Counted from the stretch's first letter, positions 5,220 to 23,605 are shown. The stretch: 64,000 nt of DNA from an uncultured Actinomycetota bacterium (GCA_963752715.1 CAVVZQ010000007.1:72215-136214); one strand, 5' to 3'. Notes: a model not told the origin generated them from the sequence alone. Program-made: numbers and translations.

Positions 5220-6124
5220 TCAGCAGTCTGTCTCGCGCCATGTGAACGTGACTCCGGTGCCCATCGACACCTCCACGCAGCGTCGCATCGCATAGGGGTT
5301 CTCGGAGTCCTCGATCCACATCCGGGCCGTGAACCGCGTACCGGGGACCACCAGACCGGCGTCGCTGGTGTACACCTGACCTTCCCCGTACGTGGCGATG
5401 AGCTCGCTGCGCAGGGCAGGCAGCACGTCGGCCACCTCGGGGAGGCTGGCCACCACGGGGTCGACGGGTGGGCTGTGACCCGACCATGTGGCGGCGACTT
5501 CGGCCGCCGGATAGACAGTGGTGCACGGCACCCCGTCACCGCCGACATCCATGCGCGCAGGCCGAGCCTCCAGGTACCAGTAGTACACGGCCTCGGTGTA
5601 GGACAGCCCCGGCATGCCGTCGAAGGACTCGCCACGGGGATCGGTGGTCAGGTCGCGGCAGAGCAGCCCGGGAACGTAGGCGTCCAGCTGTACGGCGTCG
5701 CAGCACCCTGCGATCGCGTAGGCGTAGTGTCCCCGGTCGTCGAGCACGACCACCTGGACGGCGCCGAACTCCAGCGGCTCGTCGGGAATGAAGATGCAGC
5801 TGAACGCGCTTCCGTAGCCGACCGGACGGTCGGGCGGGCAGCTCCACGCACCCGGCCCGTACTCCGCAACGAGCGTCCGGCGCACCTCGGTTCCGATCGC
5901 CGAGATCGTCGTCAGGTCACGGGTCGCGTCGGCAGGGGACGTTTCCGACGGGGAGGGCGCGGCTGTCGGCGAGGGACAGAGGGACCTGACGTGGGACCTC
6001 CGTCGTCGCCGGTACCACCCACCAGAAACCACACGAGAAGGCCGGCAGCGGCGGCTGCCGTCGCCCCGAGAACGACCCACAGCCACGACGGCGTCCGCCG
6101 GGGAGCACTACCGGTCGCGCTCAC
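5220..6124 (-). CDS. Hypothetical Cys-rich protein with an N-terminal TM anchor in another frame (apparent frameshift)
   Basis: The main frame (5220-6086) has protein-like composition. The only TM segment ('WLWVVLGATAAAAAGLLVWFLVGG') is in the 5912-6124 frame. The junction is expected near 5950-6000. Confidence 0.4.
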
Positions 6125-6317
6125 ACTGTCAGGGTGACACCTGACGGCCCCGAGGGATCGGAGATCGTACGACGCCGTGTCCGGGAGCGGGGACCGACCG
6201 CGACCACAGCTTGCGAGAGGATCGCTCGGCTACGCAGGCGAGCCCGGCAGCCAATCGTCCTGAACGGCCTGGACGTGATCGAGTAGAAATCCTCCGTCCG
6301 GAACGCTGAACCGGGAC

Positions 6318-6363
6318 GAGTCCGTCCTGGCGGGAACAAAGAGTCCGTCCTGGCGGGAACAAA
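6318..6363. repeat. Perfect 23-bp tandem duplication in a ~440-bp intergenic region
   Basis: 'gagtccgtcctggcgggaacaaa' x2, followed by 'gcaggactc', which is complementary to the repeat start. Confidence 0.9.
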
Positions 6364-16221: not shown

Positions 16222-16667
16222 GGCCGACGGGCCGACAGCTGCTGGAGGCACCCCACAGCTGGAGTTTGAGGCAGCCTGCAGGTGGACGCGGTTCGACGCA
16301 GGCCTTGAGATGCTGGCCGATGACCAGGCCACGGCACGCTGCGACAGCCGCGTCGGGCACGAATCCGACCAGCGGTGGGACGCCACAGGCTCCGCCTGCA
16401 ATGGCGGATCGCCGTGGCCCAGAATGTGACCTCTGTCACACCCGCGTCAGGGATCCGTACCGCGCACGTCCCTACAAGTGACTACATCACCGACCTCACA
16501 CAGGGACGAGATCATGACTCAGAATGTCGAGACCACCCAGGCCCAGTACCAGCCCGGCGACATCGTCAACGGCCACCAGCTCAGCCCGGAGGGTCAGTGG
16601 GTGCCCGTCGCCACCACGACGACCGCGCCGCCCCCCGCGCAGCAGCCGAGCGAAGCCGAAGCAGGGC

Positions 16668-17186
16668 ATGAGCAGGACCAAGAAGATCCTCATCGGCGCA
16701 GGCGCCGCACTGGCCGCCGTCATCGTCTTCGGCGCCATCACCAGCGGCGGCGAGGAGAGCACCGACACCGGCAGCGGCACCGTCGCCACGCAGGACGCTG
16801 ACGCAGGCGTCGGCGACGCGGTGCGGGACGGCAACTTCGAGTTCACGGTGGACGGCGTCGAGTCCCTCGGTGACACCGTCGGCGACCAGTACTTCGGCGA
16901 GACCGCCCAGGGCGAGTACATCGGCGTCACGGTCACCGTCACCAACATCGGCGACGAGGCGCAGGCCTGGTTCGACGACAACCAGACCCTGATCATTGAC
17001 GGCAAGGAGTACAACGCGGACTCGATGGCCACCATCTTGATCAACGACGATGGCTTCTACGAGGAGATCAACCCCGGCAACACGATGACCATCACCCTGG
17101 TCTACGACGTGCCCGCCGGATCCAGCCCCTCAGCCATCGAACTGCATGACAGCGCCTTCTCCGGCGGTGCCACCGTCAAACTCTGA
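16668..17186 (+). CDS. DUF4352-domain membrane-anchored protein
   Basis: TM 'ILIGAGAALAAVIVFGAI' followed by 'FEFTVDGVE...GEYIGVTVTVTNIGDEAQ...'. An upstream ORF (ATG 16514) in another frame may be its original N-terminus. Confidence 0.7.
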   Translation: MSRTKKILIGAGAALAAVIVFGAITSGGEESTDTGSGTVATQDADAGVGDAVRDGNFEFTVDGVESLGDTVGDQYFGETAQGEYIGVTVTVTNIGDEAQAWFDDNQTLIIDGKEYNADSMATILINDDGFYEEINPGNTMTITLVYDVPAGSSPSAIELHDSAFSGGATVKL

Positions 17187-17302
17187 CAACACGCACACCC
17201 CGACGCCCGGCAGAGCCGCATCCCAGCGGACCTGCCGGGCGTCGGGCGTCCCCCTCCCTCCCGAATCGACAAGCGTCCGGGCACGGCGGGGGGCCGCGCC
17301 TG

Positions 17303-17425
17303 AACCAGCGGGTGGACGCGGAGGGCGTCGTCGAGCCGAGCCATCAGGTGCGGCGGTACACGGCCGACCACCGAGTCCGACCGCTCCAACGGCACCGAGC
17401 GGACCTGAACTCCCAGCGCCTCGCC
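17303..17425 (-). pseudogene. mazF: MazF/PemK-type toxin, 3' fragment
   Basis: 'GEALGVQVRSVPLERSDSVVGRVPPHLMARLDDALRVH' matches the MazF C-terminal pattern (..QVRSV..ERL...G.....M..VD.AL..H). Confidence 0.6.
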
Positions 17426-17442
17426 TTGCCACCAGCCGGCAT

Positions 17443-18025
17443 GTCCTCATGGGACGGCGATGCCATGATCGACTGATGGCCATGCCGACCGCACCCGAGG
17501 TCCATCTCGAAACGGCCGCGCAGTGGCACGACTGGCTGGCGACCCACCACGACACCGAGGCCGGTGTCTGGCTGGTCTCGTGGCGGACCGCCACGGGGCG
17601 GCCCCGGATCGACTACGAGGACGTGGTGTGCGAGGCGCTGCGGTACGGGTGGGTGGACAGTACGGTCCGGGTGCTCGACGACGAGCGCAACGCGCTCTAC
17701 CTGGCGCGTCGCAAGAAGGGCAGCACCTGGGCGCGCTCCAACAGAGAGCGGGTGGCGCGCCTCACCGCTCAGGGGCGCATGCAGCCCAGCGGCCTGGCGG
17801 CCGTCGAGCGTGCCAAAGCCGACGGGTCTTGGACGGTGCTGGACCCCGTCGAGAACCTGGTCGTGCCGGAGGACCTCGCTGCTGCACTCGACGCGCGCCC
17901 CGGCGCGCGGGCCGCGTACGAGGCACTGCCGCCCTCGGCGCGCAAGCAGATCCTGTGGTCGGTCGTCAGCGCGAAGCGACCGGAGACCCGGGCACGCCGG
18001 GTTGACCGGGCTGTGGCCACGCTCG
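17443..18025. repeat. Direct repeat copy 1 (583 bp) covering the first mazE codons, the intergenic region and ydeI-like
   Basis: Near-identical to 21930-22523, apart from substitutions near the left edge, one substitution near 18003, and an 11-bp insertion in copy 2. Confidence 0.9.
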
Positions 18026-18039
18026 AGTCCGGTCTCTGA
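17476..18039 (+). CDS. YdeI/OmpD-associated (OmdA-domain) family protein, intact copy
   Basis: 'YLARRKKGSTWARSNRERVARLTAQGRMQPSGLAAVERAKADGSW...SARKQILWSVVSAKRPETRARRV'. Confidence 0.7.
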   Translation: MAMPTAPEVHLETAAQWHDWLATHHDTEAGVWLVSWRTATGRPRIDYEDVVCEALRYGWVDSTVRVLDDERNALYLARRKKGSTWARSNRERVARLTAQGRMQPSGLAAVERAKADGSWTVLDPVENLVVPEDLAAALDARPGARAAYEALPPSARKQILWSVVSAKRPETRARRVDRAVATLESGL

Positions 18040-18050
18040 GTGGGGCCGCA

Positions 18051-18075
18051 CTGTGCCCGGTCCGACCGGGCACAG
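18051..18075. terminator. Perfect 10-bp-stem hairpin downstream of ydeI copy 1
   Basis: 'ctgtgcccgg-tccga-ccgggcacag'. No U-tract follows. Confidence 0.35.
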
Positions 18076-18133
18076 GCGCAGTGGACAGCGATGGTGCGTG
18101 CGCACAGCGACTGCACGTAAGCCGCAAGCACCA

Positions 18134-18178
18134 TCAGGCAGGCGCGACGCCCAGCTGCTGCACCATCGCGAGTCGATC
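18134..18178 (-). pseudogene. Ester cyclase 3'-terminal remnant (paralogue of 6568-6981)
   Basis: 'DRLAMVQQLGVAPA*' versus 'NMAMMQQLGIAPA*' at 6568. About 40 nt of nucleotide similarity includes the stop codon. Confidence 0.4.
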
Positions 18179-18275
18179 CCCATTGGGAGGGTGTGTCGGC
18201 CCGTGTAGGCGAGGATGCCGCGCCGGAACAGTCCCGGATCGACACGGATCGACAGGGTCGAGGCGGGGAGTCCTC

Positions 18276-18440
18276 ATGTCGGAGCTGCGGGCAGCGACGC
18301 GGCTGGTTCGCGTGACCGGCGGACCGCGTCGTGAGCAGGCCCGAGACATGCTCCGGGACGCCTACGGGCGCTTCACCGAAGGGCTGGACTACCCGGACCT
18401 GCAGGCAGCGCGTACCCAGATCGAGGCCGAACCGGCATGA
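18276..18440 (+). pseudogene. C-terminal remnant of a cyclase/ATPase-TPR regulator
   Basis: 'ARDMLRDAYGRFTEGLDYPDLQAARTQI' resembles the conserved tail (..VY..FTEGFDT.DL..A..LL) of that family. Confidence 0.4.
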
Positions 18441-18937
18441 ACCGGCTCGTGGAGTGCGGGTCATCGAGTCCCAGTCGACCTCCGGCCCCGGTCACCCTCC
18501 TGCGAAGGGCGGCATGGCGTCCACGACGGCCCCCTCGGGCAGCACCACCTCGACGTCCGCGGCGGGCCCGCCGTCGACCGCAACCGGCCATGGTCGCCGC
18601 AGCAGCGTTCGTCGGTGCGGGACGCATGGACGGAGGTCGCTCCGCTGCGCACTCCGGTGCGAGTTCCGCGCGCCCCGAGAGCCACGCGCTGATGGCCCCG
18701 CTTGCCGAACCGTCGGCGCGCCGCTGGATCGGCTCGGAGACCCTCAGCCCGCCGGCTGGACTTCCATGCTCACCTTCTCAGGAGCATTCCTGATCGAGGT
18801 CGGCGGCGTCGACCAGGCAGCCGCAGGGTGGCTGCTGGGGCTGGCAGCCGGCCCGTGGCCAGCGATCGATGAGAGCGGTCACCACCACCACCAGCATCGA
18901 CTGGAGTCGAGGGGTGGCGCTGAGTCACGAGCACGCG

Positions 18938-20758
18938 TCATGCGGGTTGCGGTACGGACCCGGCGAGCTCGGCGAGGCGCTCCGCGCCGATCGGTTCGGC
19001 GGCGAGTAGCGGAACGATCGCAAACCGGGGCGCCAGCCGACGCGCGGTGTCGATGTGCTCCTGCTCGGCGGCGGCGCGGCGCCGCAGCAGCTCCCCCGTG
19101 GGATGCGCCGCAGCGAGGGAGTTGTTGACCACCCAGGCCCACGGCTCGATGCCGGCCCGCTGCAGGTCGGCCTGCAGTTCCTCGGCCTCCAAGACGGGTG
19201 TGGGCTCGGCGAGAGTCACGACAATGACCATGGTCTGTTCCGGATCCTGCAGCGTCATCAGCGGAGTCGTGTACGTCGTCGAGTCGCCCAGCTGACGTAC
19301 GACGTCGCGATGGTAGGAGCCCGCGGCGTCAAGCAGCAGCAGCGTGTGTCCGGTGGGTGCGGTGTCGATGACGACGAACTGCCGGCGGGACTCGCTCACC
19401 GCGTGGCCGAACTTCCGGAACACCGCCACCTCCTCCGTGCATGGTGAGAGCAGGTCCTCGGCGAGTGCGGCGCGCCCGGCATCGTCGAGGTTCCGGCCCT
19501 TGGTGGCCATGACGTGGTCACGGTAGGCCTGCGTCGCCTCGACCGGGTCGATGCGGGAGACCCGCAGGCCGGCAACGTCCGAGGGCAGGGTGTCGGCAAG
19601 GTGCGCGGCGGGGTCGGTGGTCGTCAGGTGGACGGGATGACCGCGCCGTGCCAGCGCCACCGCGACCGCGGCGGCAAGCGCGGTCTTGCCGACGCCGCCC
19701 TTGCCCATGAGCAGGACGAGGCCGTGACCGCGCTCGGCCACCTCGTCGACCAGAGCGGCCAGCGGCGCCGTGGGCCCTCCCGCGGCGGCTGCGGCGGCTG
19801 TGGTGGCTGTGGGGGCTGTGGCGACCGCCGGCATGGGCAGGGCCTGCCCGCCACCAGTCGTCTCGAACAGCGACCGCAGAGCTTCTTGGCCGATCATGTT
19901 CGCTGCCTTCAGCTCGAAGATGTCGCGCGGCAGTTCGGCGAGCCCGGAGGGCATGGCAGCGATCGCCGCGGCCTCCCGCTCGCGGACCGCCGCGCTGAGC
20001 GGGTCGTCGTCGGCCATGCCGGCCTCGTCGGGCAGCACCCCGTTGACAACGAGGTAGGGCTCGGTGATGCCGATCTCGCTCAGCTCCGTTCGCGTCCGCT
20101 CCACCTCCCCGACGGACGAGGCCTGTGGTCGGGTCACGAGCACCATCCGGGTGCGGCGGCGGTCCTGCAGTGCGGCGACGGCGTCGGCGTAGGTCTGGCG
20201 CTGCTTGTCCAGACCCGCGAGCGGCCCGAGACAGGAGGCGTCGCCCTTGCCTGCCTGCAGGAAACCGGTCCAGGAACCGGGAAGCTGCAGCAGCCGGATG
20301 GTGTGACCCGTGGGCGCGGTGTCGAAGACGACGTGGTCGTACGCGGAATCGCTCACCGGGTGGGTCAACAGGGCGGTGAACTCGTTGAACGAGGCGACCT
20401 CGGTCGTGCAGGACCCGGACAGCTGCTCGGTGATCGCAGCGATCTCCGCCGCAGGCAGAAGTGTCCGTACCGGCGCGATGATGCGATCCCGGTAGGCCTG
20501 CGCCGCCTGCTCGGGGTCGATCTCCAGCGCGGACAGGCCGTCGACGCCGGGGACCGGAGTGACGGTGTTGCCGATAGTGATGCCGAAGACCTGGCCGACA
20601 TTGGACGCGGGGTCCGTGCTCACCAGCAGCACCCGACGGCCGGCATCGGCGAGCCGTAGGGCGGTCGCGCACGCCACCGACGTCTTGCCCACGCCCCCCT
20701 TGCCCGTGAAGAACACGAACCGTGGCAGGTCGTCGAGGAACCGTGGGAGGACGGTCAT
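18938..20758 (-). CDS. arsA: Arsenite-stimulated ATPase ArsA (two-domain)
   Basis: Duplicated P-loops ('FFTGKGGVGKTSVA', 'LLMGKGGVGKTALA') and 'DTAPTGHT' in both halves. 606 aa. Confidence 0.9.
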   Translation of the reverse strand: MTVLPRFLDDLPRFVFFTGKGGVGKTSVACATALRLADAGRRVLLVSTDPASNVGQVFGITIGNTVTPVPGVDGLSALEIDPEQAAQAYRDRIIAPVRTLLPAAEIAAITEQLSGSCTTEVASFNEFTALLTHPVSDSAYDHVVFDTAPTGHTIRLLQLPGSWTGFLQAGKGDASCLGPLAGLDKQRQTYADAVAALQDRRRTRMVLVTRPQASSVGEVERTRTELSEIGITEPYLVVNGVLPDEAGMADDDPLSAAVREREAAAIAAMPSGLAELPRDIFELKAANMIGQEALRSLFETTGGGQALPMPAVATAPTATTAAAAAAGGPTAPLAALVDEVAERGHGLVLLMGKGGVGKTALAAAVAVALARRGHPVHLTTTDPAAHLADTLPSDVAGLRVSRIDPVEATQAYRDHVMATKGRNLDDAGRAALAEDLLSPCTEEVAVFRKFGHAVSESRRQFVVIDTAPTGHTLLLLDAAGSYHRDVVRQLGDSTTYTTPLMTLQDPEQTMVIVVTLAEPTPVLEAEELQADLQRAGIEPWAWVVNNSLAAAHPTGELLRRRAAAEQEHIDTARRLAPRFAIVPLLAAEPIGAERLAELAGSVPQPA

Positions 20759-20759
20759 G

Positions 20760-21179
20760 TCAACAGCACCCGCCAGTGCCGCAGCAGGACCCGGACTCCT
20801 CCACCACCGCGAGCTCGGTAGCGCCGACCGGGACGGAGACCCGACTGGTGACGGGATCGGCGGTCACTGCGTCGGCGGTCACGCCCGCGTACGTCAGGAG
20901 CTCGCTGCGGTCGGGATAGCGGCCGGTCAGCACGGTCATCCCGTCGACCAGCGTCAGCGGCAGACCGGCGGAGCCGGCCACCGCCAGGAAGGCCCGCACG
21001 GTTTCGTTGCCGGCGAACGCGGACGGGTCGTTCGCCAGGTTGTGCCTTTCGACGTCGGCTCCGAGCCCCCTTGCGTAGGCAAGGTCTGCCGTGAACCCGA
21101 CGAGGGACTCGTCGACGTCGGGGCCACACACGCCGGTGTTGCAGCACAGGGCGGGTTCGAAGACGCGGACCGTACGCAT
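20760..21179 (-). CDS. arsD: Arsenical resistance metallochaperone ArsD
   Basis: 'MRTVRVFEPALCCNTGVCGPDVD' with the Cys12/13/18 motif. Confidence 0.9.
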   Translation of the reverse strand: MRTVRVFEPALCCNTGVCGPDVDESLVGFTADLAYARGLGADVERHNLANDPSAFAGNETVRAFLAVAGSAGLPLTLVDGMTVLTGRYPDRSELLTYAGVTADAVTADPVTSRVSVPVGATELAVVEESGSCCGTGGCC

Positions 21180-21207
21180 CTATGCCTCCTAGTCTGTTGG
21201 GTCTCGG

Positions 21208-21513
21208 TCAGCAGCAGCGGGTGGGAAGAGCACGGGACAGCCGGTCGTGGGCGTCGGAGGCCAGGGTGTAGTCCACCCATCGGCCCCGTTTGGCCGACGT
21301 CACGAGACCGGCTTCACGCAGCACACGCAAGTGGTAGGACAGCACGTTGGCTGCGACACCCGCGACGGGCTGCAGGTCACACACGCACCGCGTCCCTGCC
21401 GCGGACAGCTCCGCCAGCAACGTCCACCGGACGGGGTCTGACGCCGCGGCGAGCAGTCCCAGGGACTCGGAGATGTCCGCCGCGGACCTCTCGATGGCAA
21501 TTGCTTCGATCAC
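21208..21513 (-). CDS. arsR: ArsR-family metalloregulator
   Basis: 'CVCDL' metal site followed by 'LSYHLRVLREAGLV'. Confidence 0.85.
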   Translation of the reverse strand: MIEAIAIERSAADISESLGLLAAASDPVRWTLLAELSAAGTRCVCDLQPVAGVAANVLSYHLRVLREAGLVTSAKRGRWVDYTLASDAHDRLSRALPTRCC

Positions 21514-21547
21514 AGTTGAAGCATAGCACTTCTGCCCAGCCGATCTC

Positions 21548-21745
21548 CAGACCTGTCACTGTGCTGATACGCGGAGAGGACAAGGGGAGCACGCGATCTG
21601 AGCAGTCGCACGCAGGGGGCTGTCCCAGTCGGGTGGCGCTCGCATTGGCCCGGTCGTTGCTGACGATGACCGCCGGGCGTCGCTTGTTCGCCTCGCTGCC
21701 CCGCGCAGGTACCAGGTCCGTCAGGCGAATCTCACCTCGCAGCAT
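21548..21745 (-). pseudogene. mazF: MazF/PemK-type toxin, 5' fragment
   Basis: 'MLRGEIRLTDLVPARGSEANKRRPAVIVSNDRANASATRLG...VLPLSS...TGLEIGW'. The start overlaps the mazE-like stop by 14 nt. Confidence 0.65.
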
Positions 21746-21953
21746 CAACGAGCCCGTCGCCGGCGATGCCTTCCCAGACCTCGGCGTCTCCCGCGGCCTC
21801 CCACTCATCCCAGGCAGTCGCGTACGCGTCCTCCAGCGCAGGGTCGGCCAGCCTCCCGATCGCTTTCTGGACAGCCGCCGAGCGCGACGGCAGCCCCGTC
21901 GCCTTCGCGCAACGGTCGAGGAGGGCGACGTCCTCGTCGGACGGCGATGCCAT
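21732..21953 (-). CDS. mazE: Ribbon-helix-helix antitoxin (MazE/CopG-like)
   Basis: 'DEDVALLDRCAKATGLPSRSAAVQKAIGRLADPALEDAYATAWDEWE'. It lies immediately upstream of the toxin 5' fragment. Confidence 0.65.
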   Translation of the reverse strand: MASPSDEDVALLDRCAKATGLPSRSAAVQKAIGRLADPALEDAYATAWDEWEAAGDAEVWEGIAGDGLVDAAR

Positions 21954-22523
21954 GATCGACTGATGGCCATGCCGACCGCACCCGAGGTCCATCTCGAAAC
22001 GGCCGCGCAGTGGCACGACTGGCTGGCGACCCACCACGACACCGAGGCCGGTGTCTGGCCGGTGTCTGGCTGGTCTCGTGGCGGACCGCCACGGGGCGGC
22101 CCCGGATCGACTACGAGGACGTGGTGTGCGAGGCGCTGCGGTACGGGTGGGTGGACAGTACGGTCCGGGTGCTCGACGACGAGCGCAACGCGCTCTACCT
22201 GGCGCGTCGCAAGAAGGGCAGCACCTGGGCGCGCTCCAACAGAGAGCGGGTGGCGCGCCTCACCGCTCAGGGGCGCATGCAGCCCAGCGGCCTGGCGGCC
22301 GTCGAGCGTGCCAAAGCCGACGGGTCTTGGACGGTGCTGGACCCCGTCGAGAACCTGGTCGTGCCGGAGGACCTCGCTGCTGCACTCGACGCGCGCCCCG
22401 GCGCGCGGGCCGCGTACGAGGCACTGCCGCCCTCGGCGCGCAAGCAGATCCTGTGGTCGGTCGTCAGCGCGAAGCGACCGGAGACCCGGGCACGCCGGGT
22501 CGACCGGGCTGTGGCCACGCTCG
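21930..22523. repeat. Direct repeat copy 2 (594 bp)
   Basis: Matches 17443-18025. It contains the tandem duplication 'ccggtgtctgg' x2 at ~22048-22069. Confidence 0.9.
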
Positions 22524-22540
22524 TACCTGATCCTGCGTAG
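21963..22540 (+). pseudogene. YdeI/OmdA-family protein, copy 2, frameshifted by an 11-bp tandem duplication
   Basis: The N-terminus 'MAMPTAPEVHLETAAQWHDWLATHHDTEAGVW' switches frame. The remainder is read in the 22010-22540 frame. Confidence 0.85.
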
Positions 22541-22562: not shown

Positions 22563-22598
22563 CCGGTACCCAGACCGGTACCCAGACCGGTACCCAGA
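22563..22598. repeat. Perfect 12-bp tandem repeat (CCGGTACCCAGA) x3 abutting the GNAT RBS
   Basis: Units at 22563, 22575 and 22587, then 'aaggag' and the ATG at 22612. Confidence 0.95.
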
Positions 22599-23170: not shown

Positions 23171-23527
23171 TCAGCTGCCAGTCGCGTGACGATGCCGCTG
23201 GCTGGCGTAGTAGGCCACCTTCCTGGCCATGGTCACGAACTCCGCGACCTCCTCCGGCCAGTCCACCCGGCCGTTCTCGATCGGCGTGACTTCTTCGGAG
23301 ACGAAGAACTGCGCCTGCAGCGCGTACGTCACCGGGCCCTCTCGGAGCCTGTCGGCCATGTCGCCGGCCAGGTCGGTGGGCAGGTCGGTGGGCGGGGCTA
23401 CGCGTCTGCTGCGCTGGTCCGGCATCAGGCGAACCTTGGCCGCGTACCCACCCCATCGGATGGGCGCCGCGCTGAAGAACGTCTCGGTCGCGAATCCGGA
23501 GAACGACCGGAACAGCTCCTTGGTCAA
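23171..23527 (-). pseudogene. Catalase-related (y4iL-like) protein, C-terminal fragment
   Basis: 'FFVSEEVTPIENGRVDWPEEVAEFV' and 'ARKVAYYASQRHR' resemble the tail of catalase-like haem proteins. About 200 N-terminal residues are missing. Confidence 0.4.
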
Positions 23528-23538
23528 GCGTGCCGCAC

Positions 23539-23570
23539 TGGGCGGGTACTGGGCGGGTACGGGCGGGTAC
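23539..23570. repeat. 10/11-bp tandem repeat (TGGGCGGGTAC) x3
   Basis: 'tgggcgggtac tgggcgggtac gggcgggtac'. It lies between 23527 and 23606. Confidence 0.9.
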
Positions 23571-23605
23571 TGGGGCTGGGCCCGAGGCTCCCCGCGCGCG
23601 GAAAG

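Follow-up and report, generated by a model that had tools for sequence, protein, structure and literature searches.

A 64,000-nucleotide stretch of DNA from an uncultured Actinomycetota bacterium (GCA_963752715.1, CAVVZQ010000007.1:72215-136214; hereafter the window, with positions counted from its first letter) carries mazF and mazE sequences, an arsRDA gene block and two copies of a ydeI-like gene. Our analysis of this locus favours, with a little better than even confidence, a decayed remnant of a MazE/MazF module, made up of a ribbon-helix-helix (RHH) antitoxin and a PemK toxin, which formerly lay between a flavodoxin gene and a divergently oriented gene of the ydeI/OmdA family and was dismembered by several illegitimate recombination events. 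An earlier, sequence-only reading of the same DNA had proposed one recent 4,104-bp insertion (17439-21542) into an intact mazF, with duplication of the 7-bp target CCAGCCG. This single event is not borne out, as its right-hand junction lies inside conserved native arsR upstream DNA. The features of the locus are an ordinary multi-step rearrangement scar in a variable islet, and no functional toxin is predicted to be left in the window. The boundaries of the pieces, as redrawn here, are read directly from the DNA, and from them we infer the historical steps.

The mazF pieces lack the toxin core

Pieces of mazF lie at the following positions:

21623-21745, minus strand: mazF 5' piece, codons 1-41 (PF02452 profile positions 2-37, 38.6 bits)
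17300-17422, minus strand: mazF 3' fragment, family codons 76-115 (PF02452 profile positions 76-107, 15.2 bits)
16266-16291, minus strand: remnant of the last mazF codons (..RVHLQ), from a three-way comparison with the related contig L055

The sequence-only reading had reported MazF-like coding on the minus strand near the first two positions. This was correct, but the 5' piece comprises only 21623-21745 and not 21548-21745. The 5' and 3' pieces are 4.2 kb apart, and the short remnant at 16266-16291 follows directly after the flavodoxin gene, where related contigs have the mazF 3' end. The first 41 residues encoded in the window are identical at 40 of 41 positions to P0001, an intact 115-aa MazF. 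The core of the gene, codons 42-75 (GRGVVTVVPVTS...FPFQ...TGL), is not in the window.

Removal of the proposed insert had been expected to restore an in-frame toxin of ~107 aa. The joined open reading frame (ORF) has no stop at the family position, which reads CAG in the 3' fragment; the frame is open to 17102 and the ORF runs to 179 aa. Its similarity to MazF proteins stops after residue 41 and returns at (K/E)A..QVRSV. In between, QPPACDCSDRVLPLSSPRISTVTGLEIGWWQG stands where the family has the conserved GRGVVTVVPVTSN..RVFPFQ..LLPA.ETGL, and the alignment there shows a gap of 5 residues as well as 3 additional ones. The joined ORF does match PF02452 in one stretch, but its 51.6 bits are approximately the sum of the two ends (38.6 + 15.2), and the middle 32 residues, which stand in place of the conserved core, have no Pfam match when scanned alone. 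A one-stretch Pfam match can bridge non-homologous sequence of the right length. PF02452 has ~109 profile positions, and a continuous domain that includes the core strand was not found in the window. In a search of 5.8 billion proteins, the best homologues of the joined ORF were only 61% identical. Because the conserved core codons 42-75 are missing, the toxin would not be restored by removing the proposed insert. The segment that had been read as the middle of mazF (codons 42-70 of the joined ORF) is the arsR upstream spacer.

The 7-mer CCAGCCG is present at 17432-17438 and 21536-21542 in the same codon phase, as had been claimed, but the right-hand copy is not at a junction. It lies inside a 107-bp stretch (21514-21620) with 98% identity to the spacer between arsR and ydeI in eight related contigs, which have no mazEF at that place. 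These relatives read CCCGCCG at the site, and in them the DNA there, together with the following 78 bp, belongs to the native upstream region of arsR. The left-hand copy falls within ~20 nt of non-homologous filler. The window has a G+C content of ~70%, with no break in composition across the region, and CCAGCCG occurs 28 times on its plus strand. Random pairs of segments of comparable sizes, drawn from the same sequence, have a 7-mer in common by chance in 23-55% of cases, and no target-site duplication abutting both ends was found for this 7-bp repeat. In DNA of 70% G+C, an in-frame join together with a short shared k-mer is weak evidence for a clean insertion. The segment 18897-18913 (AGCGCCACCC..CGACT) was considered as a second copy of mazF codons 36-40 and rejected, its local alignment being no better than shuffles.

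Comparison with related contigs

A search with YdeI reached a cluster of homologues at 97% identity, on related contigs in ENA, JGI and Logan assemblies (L054-L062). Their gene order is flavodoxin / mazF remnant / arsA arsD arsR / 105-bp spacer / ydeI / GNAT. In eight contigs from eight samples, the blastn match is unbroken to window position 21620 and picks up at 21945 (equivalent to 17458 in the repeat copy R1, described below), and this contiguity was confirmed base by base in alignments. Window positions 18917-21620, holding the ars genes and the arsR upstream spacer, are thus joined directly to ydeI in eight related metagenomic contigs. Since the relatives are contiguous there without mazEF, 21514-21620 is the native arsR-ydeI spacer. 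The use of close relatives shifted the junction by ~80 bp and altered the inferred history.

The mazF remnant of the relatives covers codons ~38-115 with one frameshift and reads ...AARLGRGVVTVVPVTSSVARVFPFQTLLPAEETGLRMDSKALVEQIRSV... It lies directly beyond the arsA stop and abuts arsA downstream DNA. The mazF 3' fragment of the window is 80% identical to it. A 10-bp overlap, CCCGACTGGG, is at once the end of the window 5' piece and the start of the relatives' piece. A chimera of window codons 1-41 and the relatives' codons 42-115 is 115 aa long and reaches 89.9 bits against PF02452, and its matches include intact MazFs of up to 84% identity. The window and its relatives so appear to hold complementary parts of one toxin gene.

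The ars block

The presence of arsA, arsD and arsR had been noted from the sequence alone. Pfam confirms the three genes, which are contiguous on the minus strand and would form one transcription unit:

18917-21620, minus strand: ars block, common to the relatives at 98.1-98.6% identity, with 21 bp of DNA 3' of arsA
18938-20758, minus strand: arsA (ArsA 308.6 bits in 3 stretches, both PF02374 halves)
20760-21179, minus strand: arsD (PF06953, 129.4 bits)
21208-21513, minus strand: arsR (HTH_5, 36.9 bits)
21514-21620: arsR upstream spacer, 107 bp, holding the right-hand CCAGCCG

After the arsA stop the block ends within 21 bp in the window compared with ~60 bp in the relatives. The arsR ATG of the relatives is lost in the window by a 1-nt deletion (21529-21542 versus L055 6338-6352), and the longest window arsR ORF, from GTG 21513, has 101 aa versus 107-108 aa in the relatives. 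No arsenite permease (ArsB/ACR3) was found in 16-24.3 kb, the rest of the window having been only sampled, or in the L055, L056 and L062 gene calls, and neither the block nor the 11.6-kb syntenic stretch of the relatives has arsB/ACR3 or arsC. Promoter and terminator scans of the G+C-rich region found neither.

The ars genes had been taken for part of a recent element. This does not agree with the comparison, in which the ars block is common to the relatives. Block identities, counting substitutions only, between the window and L055 were:

arsA: 98.6%
arsD: 98.1%
arsR and spacer: 98.2%
ydeI repeat copies R1 and R2: 97%
downstream: 94%
left flank: 90-92%
mazF 3' piece: 80%

The segment 18917-22523 (ars and ydeI) is 97-98.6% identical to the relatives and the flanking genes 90-94%. 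This suggests that the ars-ydeI segment may have been recently exchanged between lineages by recombination, and the ars block would have been shared between lineages more recently than the backbone diverged. A toxin-antitoxin module has been dismantled piecemeal beside an ars operon that is far more conserved between lineages than its surroundings. As to a plasmid origin of the ars block, the only match was arsA-arsD of Rhodococcus plasmids, the nearest annotated DNA, which is ~70% identical to the window copies.

mazE and the 324-bp block

To the right of the arsR upstream spacer lie the mazF 5' piece and mazE:

21621-21944, minus strand: 324-bp block holding most of mazE as well as mazF codons 1-41, missing in each of the eight relatives spanning this point
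21732-21953, minus strand: mazE, with a 14-nt overlap at the mazF start (21745)

The intact module L001 (5784-6014 / 6001-6348) has the same overlap, with antitoxin and toxin adjacent. A GGC microhomology is found at both edges of the 324-bp block. An exact 22-mer across its left edge, 21620/21621, was not found in metagenome contigs. The first three codons of mazE fall in sequence that is present in the relatives too.

The sequence-only reading had described mazE as an orphan antitoxin. The gene is present, but its product begins MASPS where the family has MKLSISLS, lacks the N-terminal strand of the family, and scores 17.3 bits against RHH_1 (PF01402), below the Pfam cut-off of 20.5. The C-terminal two-thirds are 66-72% identical to 76-aa homologues. 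Because MazE aligns to the family from S3 onward, its first codons may be native ydeI upstream DNA. By this comparison mazE reads as an N-terminally altered leftover.

The ydeI direct repeats

A long direct repeat of the ydeI region had been described at 17443-18025 and 21930-22523, and we found it as reported:

17443-18025, plus strand: repeat copy R1, with 15 bp of mazE (17443-17457, 2 mismatches), 18 bp of ydeI upstream DNA and ydeI copy 1
17476-18039, plus strand: ydeI copy 1, intact 187-aa ORF (PF13376)
18026-18073, plus strand: diverged ydeI 3' end with a perfect 12-bp-stem hairpin, ~74% identical to the native end, in register
21930-22523, plus strand: repeat copy R2, in native context, with the ydeI tail and then the GNAT gene as in the relatives
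21963-22540, plus strand: ydeI copy 2, frameshifted by an 11-bp tandem duplication

R1 and R2 are 99.8% identical over 583 bp and lie 4,487 bp apart. They differ by one substitution (18003 T / 22501 C), by two mismatches in the first nine bases (17449, 17451) and by the 11-bp tandem duplication, which is found only in copy 2 (22048-22069; Tandem Repeats Finder) and is absent from copy 1 and three relatives. The earlier claim that this duplication inactivates copy 2 holds as far as the frameshift is concerned. Copy 1 is the intact copy; its product scores 83.4 bits against PF13376 over profile positions 2-60 of 60, placing it in the OmdA family, and P0121/P0241 share 97% identity with it. Both copies were called as genes on one and the same contig, with products of 187 and 138 aa.

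R1 and R2 show 16 and 17 differences from the relatives, respectively, and with counts so nearly identical the two copies must share almost all of them. Because they differ by only 1 substitution in 583 bp, the duplication or homogenisation of ydeI would be the youngest event at the locus. Identity between the copies falls from 99.8% to ~74% at 18025/18026. The similarity of the tail beyond this point (18026-18073) is significant, with 0 of 2000 shuffles reaching its score, and so sharp a drop indicates a recombination or conversion boundary rather than the end-point of a fresh duplication. R1 is flanked by filler and the mazF 3' piece on its left and by foreign DNA on its right, whilst R2 has the 324-bp block and ars-side DNA on its left and the native ydeI tail and GNAT gene on its right. 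Reciprocal, copy-specific flanks of this kind match Campbell-type integration. The direct repeats bracket the ars genes, as had been pointed out, and homologous recombination between them could lead to loss or amplification of the ars operon.

Between ydeI copy 2 and the GNAT gene, a 12-bp sequence (CCGGTACCCAGA) is repeated perfectly three times in tandem (22563-22598); the relatives have about two imperfect 12-bp copies at the equivalent place.

Window-specific DNA

Some of the DNA around the mazF 3' fragment and R1 has no counterpart in the relatives:

16292-17310, plus strand: DUF4352 block, 1,019 bp, absent from the relatives (blastn versus L055)
16524-17186, plus strand: DUF4352 gene (Pfam)
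17199-17246: hairpin with 21-nt arms in the DUF4352 block
17423-17442: junction filler, not homologous to mazF, mazE or the relatives
18074-18916: window-specific DNA, 843 bp, with no match to the relatives or mazF
18276-18440, plus strand: 54-codon ORF; its only matches are to the very end of the C-terminus of 930-1315-aa AAA_16/BTAD/cyclase regulators

A perfect 11-bp direct repeat, GGTGGACGCGG, lies exactly at the edges of the DUF4352 block (16281-16291 and 17311-17321). The repeat is taken from the last mazF codons, and the outer flanks of the block resemble the relatives' mazF 3' end on both sides. The DUF4352 gene may itself be frameshifted: an N-terminal-looking ORF, MTQNVETTQAQYQPGDIVNGHQL..., starts from 16478 in a frame that differs from that of the signal-peptide and DUF4352 ORF (16524).

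Positions 17423-18916 occupy the place where the relatives have the mazF core and ~40 bp of arsA-downstream DNA. Similarity to mazF within this stretch was not significant, and Pfam found nothing significant on 18026-18916, of which the window has no second copy. The 54-codon ORF is, from its matches, a stranded gene fragment. That it might be a copy of part of the window's own AAA_16-TPR gene (39734-42637) was considered and rejected.

Proposed history

The ancestral order would have been flavodoxin, mazF-mazE, ydeI, GNAT. First, a ~2.7-kb arsRDA block with its own upstream region would have entered mazF at codons 38-41, producing a 10-bp duplication. This block would have had one end a little past the 3' end of arsA and the other ~100 bp upstream of arsR, with no permease gene in between. 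The insertion is placed at codons 38-41 because both mazF pieces share CCCGACTGGG, as a target duplication would give. The ars block may then have spread or been kept by recombination, being 98% identical between lineages with flanks at 90-92%. Second, the relatives would have deleted the 324-bp mazF(1-41)-mazE piece at the GGC microhomology. Third, in the window lineage, the 1,019-bp DUF4352 block would have entered the last mazF codons with an 11-bp duplication. Fourth, the toxin core and the DNA adjoining arsA would have been replaced by filler, the second ydeI copy and 0.9 kb of gene-fragment DNA. This last step may have occurred by single-crossover (Campbell-type) integration of a 4,487-bp unit via ydeI homology or, alternatively, by gene conversion between two older ydeI copies.

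Several observations weigh against this history. No genome at hand has both ars/mazF junctions, and the 10-bp duplication is assembled from two lineages. The 324-bp deletion in the relatives would start no more than 3 bp from the proposed right end of the ars block, a match of edges that has to be a coincidence unless the 324 bp are themselves an insertion. Codons 1-41 of mazF are nearly undecayed, with only one residue that differs from the family consensus; this requires that the gene was split recently or that these codons were copied recently from an intact one. Among the matches listed, no donor allele was found in which 18074-18916 adjoins arsA. Lastly, an uninterrupted flavodoxin-mazFE-ydeI locus was not found in the reference and metagenomic loci examined. 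There were no ars or mazEF neighbours at 50 ydeI loci from reference genomes (best 58% identity), and no flavodoxin, ars, ydeI or GNAT neighbours at 80 metagenomic mazF loci (best 84%); the closest MazE homologue (72%) has an unrelated genomic context.

Alternative explanations

The alternative that survives best, which we nevertheless consider unlikely, makes the 324-bp block an inserted fragment. Here mazFE would lie natively to the left of arsA and the arsR-spacer-ydeI order would itself be native. A single deletion in the relatives would have removed the DNA between mazF codon ~38 and a point just 3' of arsA. In the window, 324 bp cut or copied from mazE-mazF would have been pasted into the spacer at a break, by templated insertion or by capture through non-homologous end joining (NHEJ), with filler, the ydeI copy and foreign DNA replacing the remainder of mazFE. 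This explains why both edges of the 324 bp fall exactly at a point that is contiguous in eight relatives, as a single insertion gives. A mazE without the family's first strand would fit a gene truncated at its 5' end, the almost undecayed state of mazF codons 1-41 is also in its favour, and NHEJ is documented to capture heterologous fragments at breaks (PMC6379672). The 10-bp overlap, however, becomes a coincidence, with a chance of ~6% that two independent breakpoints in a 350-bp gene lie no more than 20 bp apart, as does the occurrence of an in-frame ATG and a conserved Ser codon directly at the junction. Furthermore, R1 has 15 bp of mazE joined to ydeI upstream DNA, so the paste must precede the duplication, which adds an event.

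An assembly artefact is very improbable. The second ydeI copy and the junctions would then stem from mis-joined strain variants or from mis-resolution of a repeat in a metagenome-assembled contig, and the locus is indeed polymorphic in related populations. Yet the ydeI copies, whose products are both called on this one contig, differ by a substitution, the 11-bp duplication and the edge mismatches. Every junction has unique sequence that occurs in neither the relatives nor the other copy, and a mis-join of known alleles would not yield the 18025/18026 junction or the 17423-17442 filler.

We give even less credence to non-autonomous mobile elements, whether like miniature inverted-repeat transposable elements or in the form of mobile insertion or integron-type cassettes, mobilised in trans by a transposase or an integrase. 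Direct repeats at block edges (11 bp for DUF4352 and, inferred across lineages, 10 bp for ars) are what such elements could leave. The lack of a transposase and of terminal inverted repeats, already remarked on in the earlier reading, was nevertheless upheld by a Pfam scan of 16-24 kb and an inverted-repeat test. The scan gave no significant transposase match, the sole trace being Transposase_20 at E = 0.29, and no integrase. Terminal inverted repeats of the DUF4352 block, the ars block and the ydeI plus foreign patch did not rise above the shuffled background. Within the window there are no further copies of any block, and the blocks have no end sequences in common.

The single insertion into an intact mazF, for all its 7-mer in matching codon phase and its continuous Pfam match, is already refuted by the native spacer, the missing core and stop, and the chance frequency of the 7-mer, and we discount it almost entirely.

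Comparison with known systems

The findings are not unexpected for a variable chromosomal islet. The locus resembles MazE9/MazF9-type modules of Actinomycetota (PF02452) in 40 of 41 N-terminal residues and in the 14-nt mazE/mazF overlap. It differs from them in the absence of the core from the window, in a 3' piece that lies 4.2 kb off without the family stop, and in an antitoxin that appears altered. The ars genes have the order arsR-arsD-arsA and the strong Pfam matches of arsRDABC-type operons, but neither the window block nor the relatives' syntenic stretch has the arsB/ACR3 permease or arsC of such operons.

The locus resembles Campbell-type integration in that direct repeats of the homology segment, with reciprocal flanks, stand on either side of a 4,487-bp unit. 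In the actinobacterium Dietzia, 'mono-homologous' linear DNA cyclised by NHEJ has been shown experimentally to integrate by single crossover (bioRxiv 10.1101/300723). The difference is that the present case would be a natural event with no circle or donor allele seen, and that gene conversion gives the same picture; the empty-site allele (mazF 3' piece-filler-ydeI-GNAT) was not found among the retrieved related contigs. It is conceivable, but in our estimate improbable and well below the inserted-fragment alternative, that the ars, DUF4352 and 4.49-kb blocks, which all hit one 348-bp toxin gene, share one mechanism of cassette circularisation and single crossover. If true, promoter-bearing cassettes would integrate at any homology or microhomology and leave a direct repeat of the crossover sequence (10 bp, 11 bp and 583 bp here), with no need for inverted repeats or a cassette-borne recombinase, and insertions into the toxin gene would be preferred or favoured by selection.

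Homology-facilitated illegitimate recombination is documented in bacteria (PMC3240628). The window junctions share with it, and with capture by NHEJ, the 0-3 bp of microhomology or short filler and the presence of inserted gene fragments that lack both of their ends. As in the homology-facilitated process, homology anchors the ars/ydeI segment on one side. The 10-11-bp duplications, by contrast, are not a typical product of NHEJ, and the mechanism proposed here is deduced from scars only. Insertion sequences and transposons that duplicate their target site would leave repeats like those at the block edges (11 bp for DUF4352, 10 bp inferred for ars). The locus differs from such insertions in having no terminal inverted repeats and no transposase, and the 7-bp repeat proposed earlier is not at the junction.

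Neighbouring sequence

Further to the right, the relatives (L062 7848-8380; L056 7219-7598) have, after a 211-aa GNAT gene, another PemK toxin that is intact and unrelated, together with its antitoxin. The window has no match to this pair and has biotin-carboxyl-carrier and carboxyltransferase genes instead. The PemK gene at L062 7848-8114, 4.4 kb to the right of ydeI, was considered as the missing half of mazF and rejected, as it is a different, intact toxin gene with its own antitoxin.

A comparison of window positions 23223-23541 with L062 4125-6969 showed that the window is without ~2.5 kb of the relatives' sequence, comprising a two-gene ABC transporter and the greater part of a 330-aa gene. 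Only 311 bp (23226-23536) remain of this stretch, and a tandem 11-bp repeat lies at the edge of the deletion (23537-23574).

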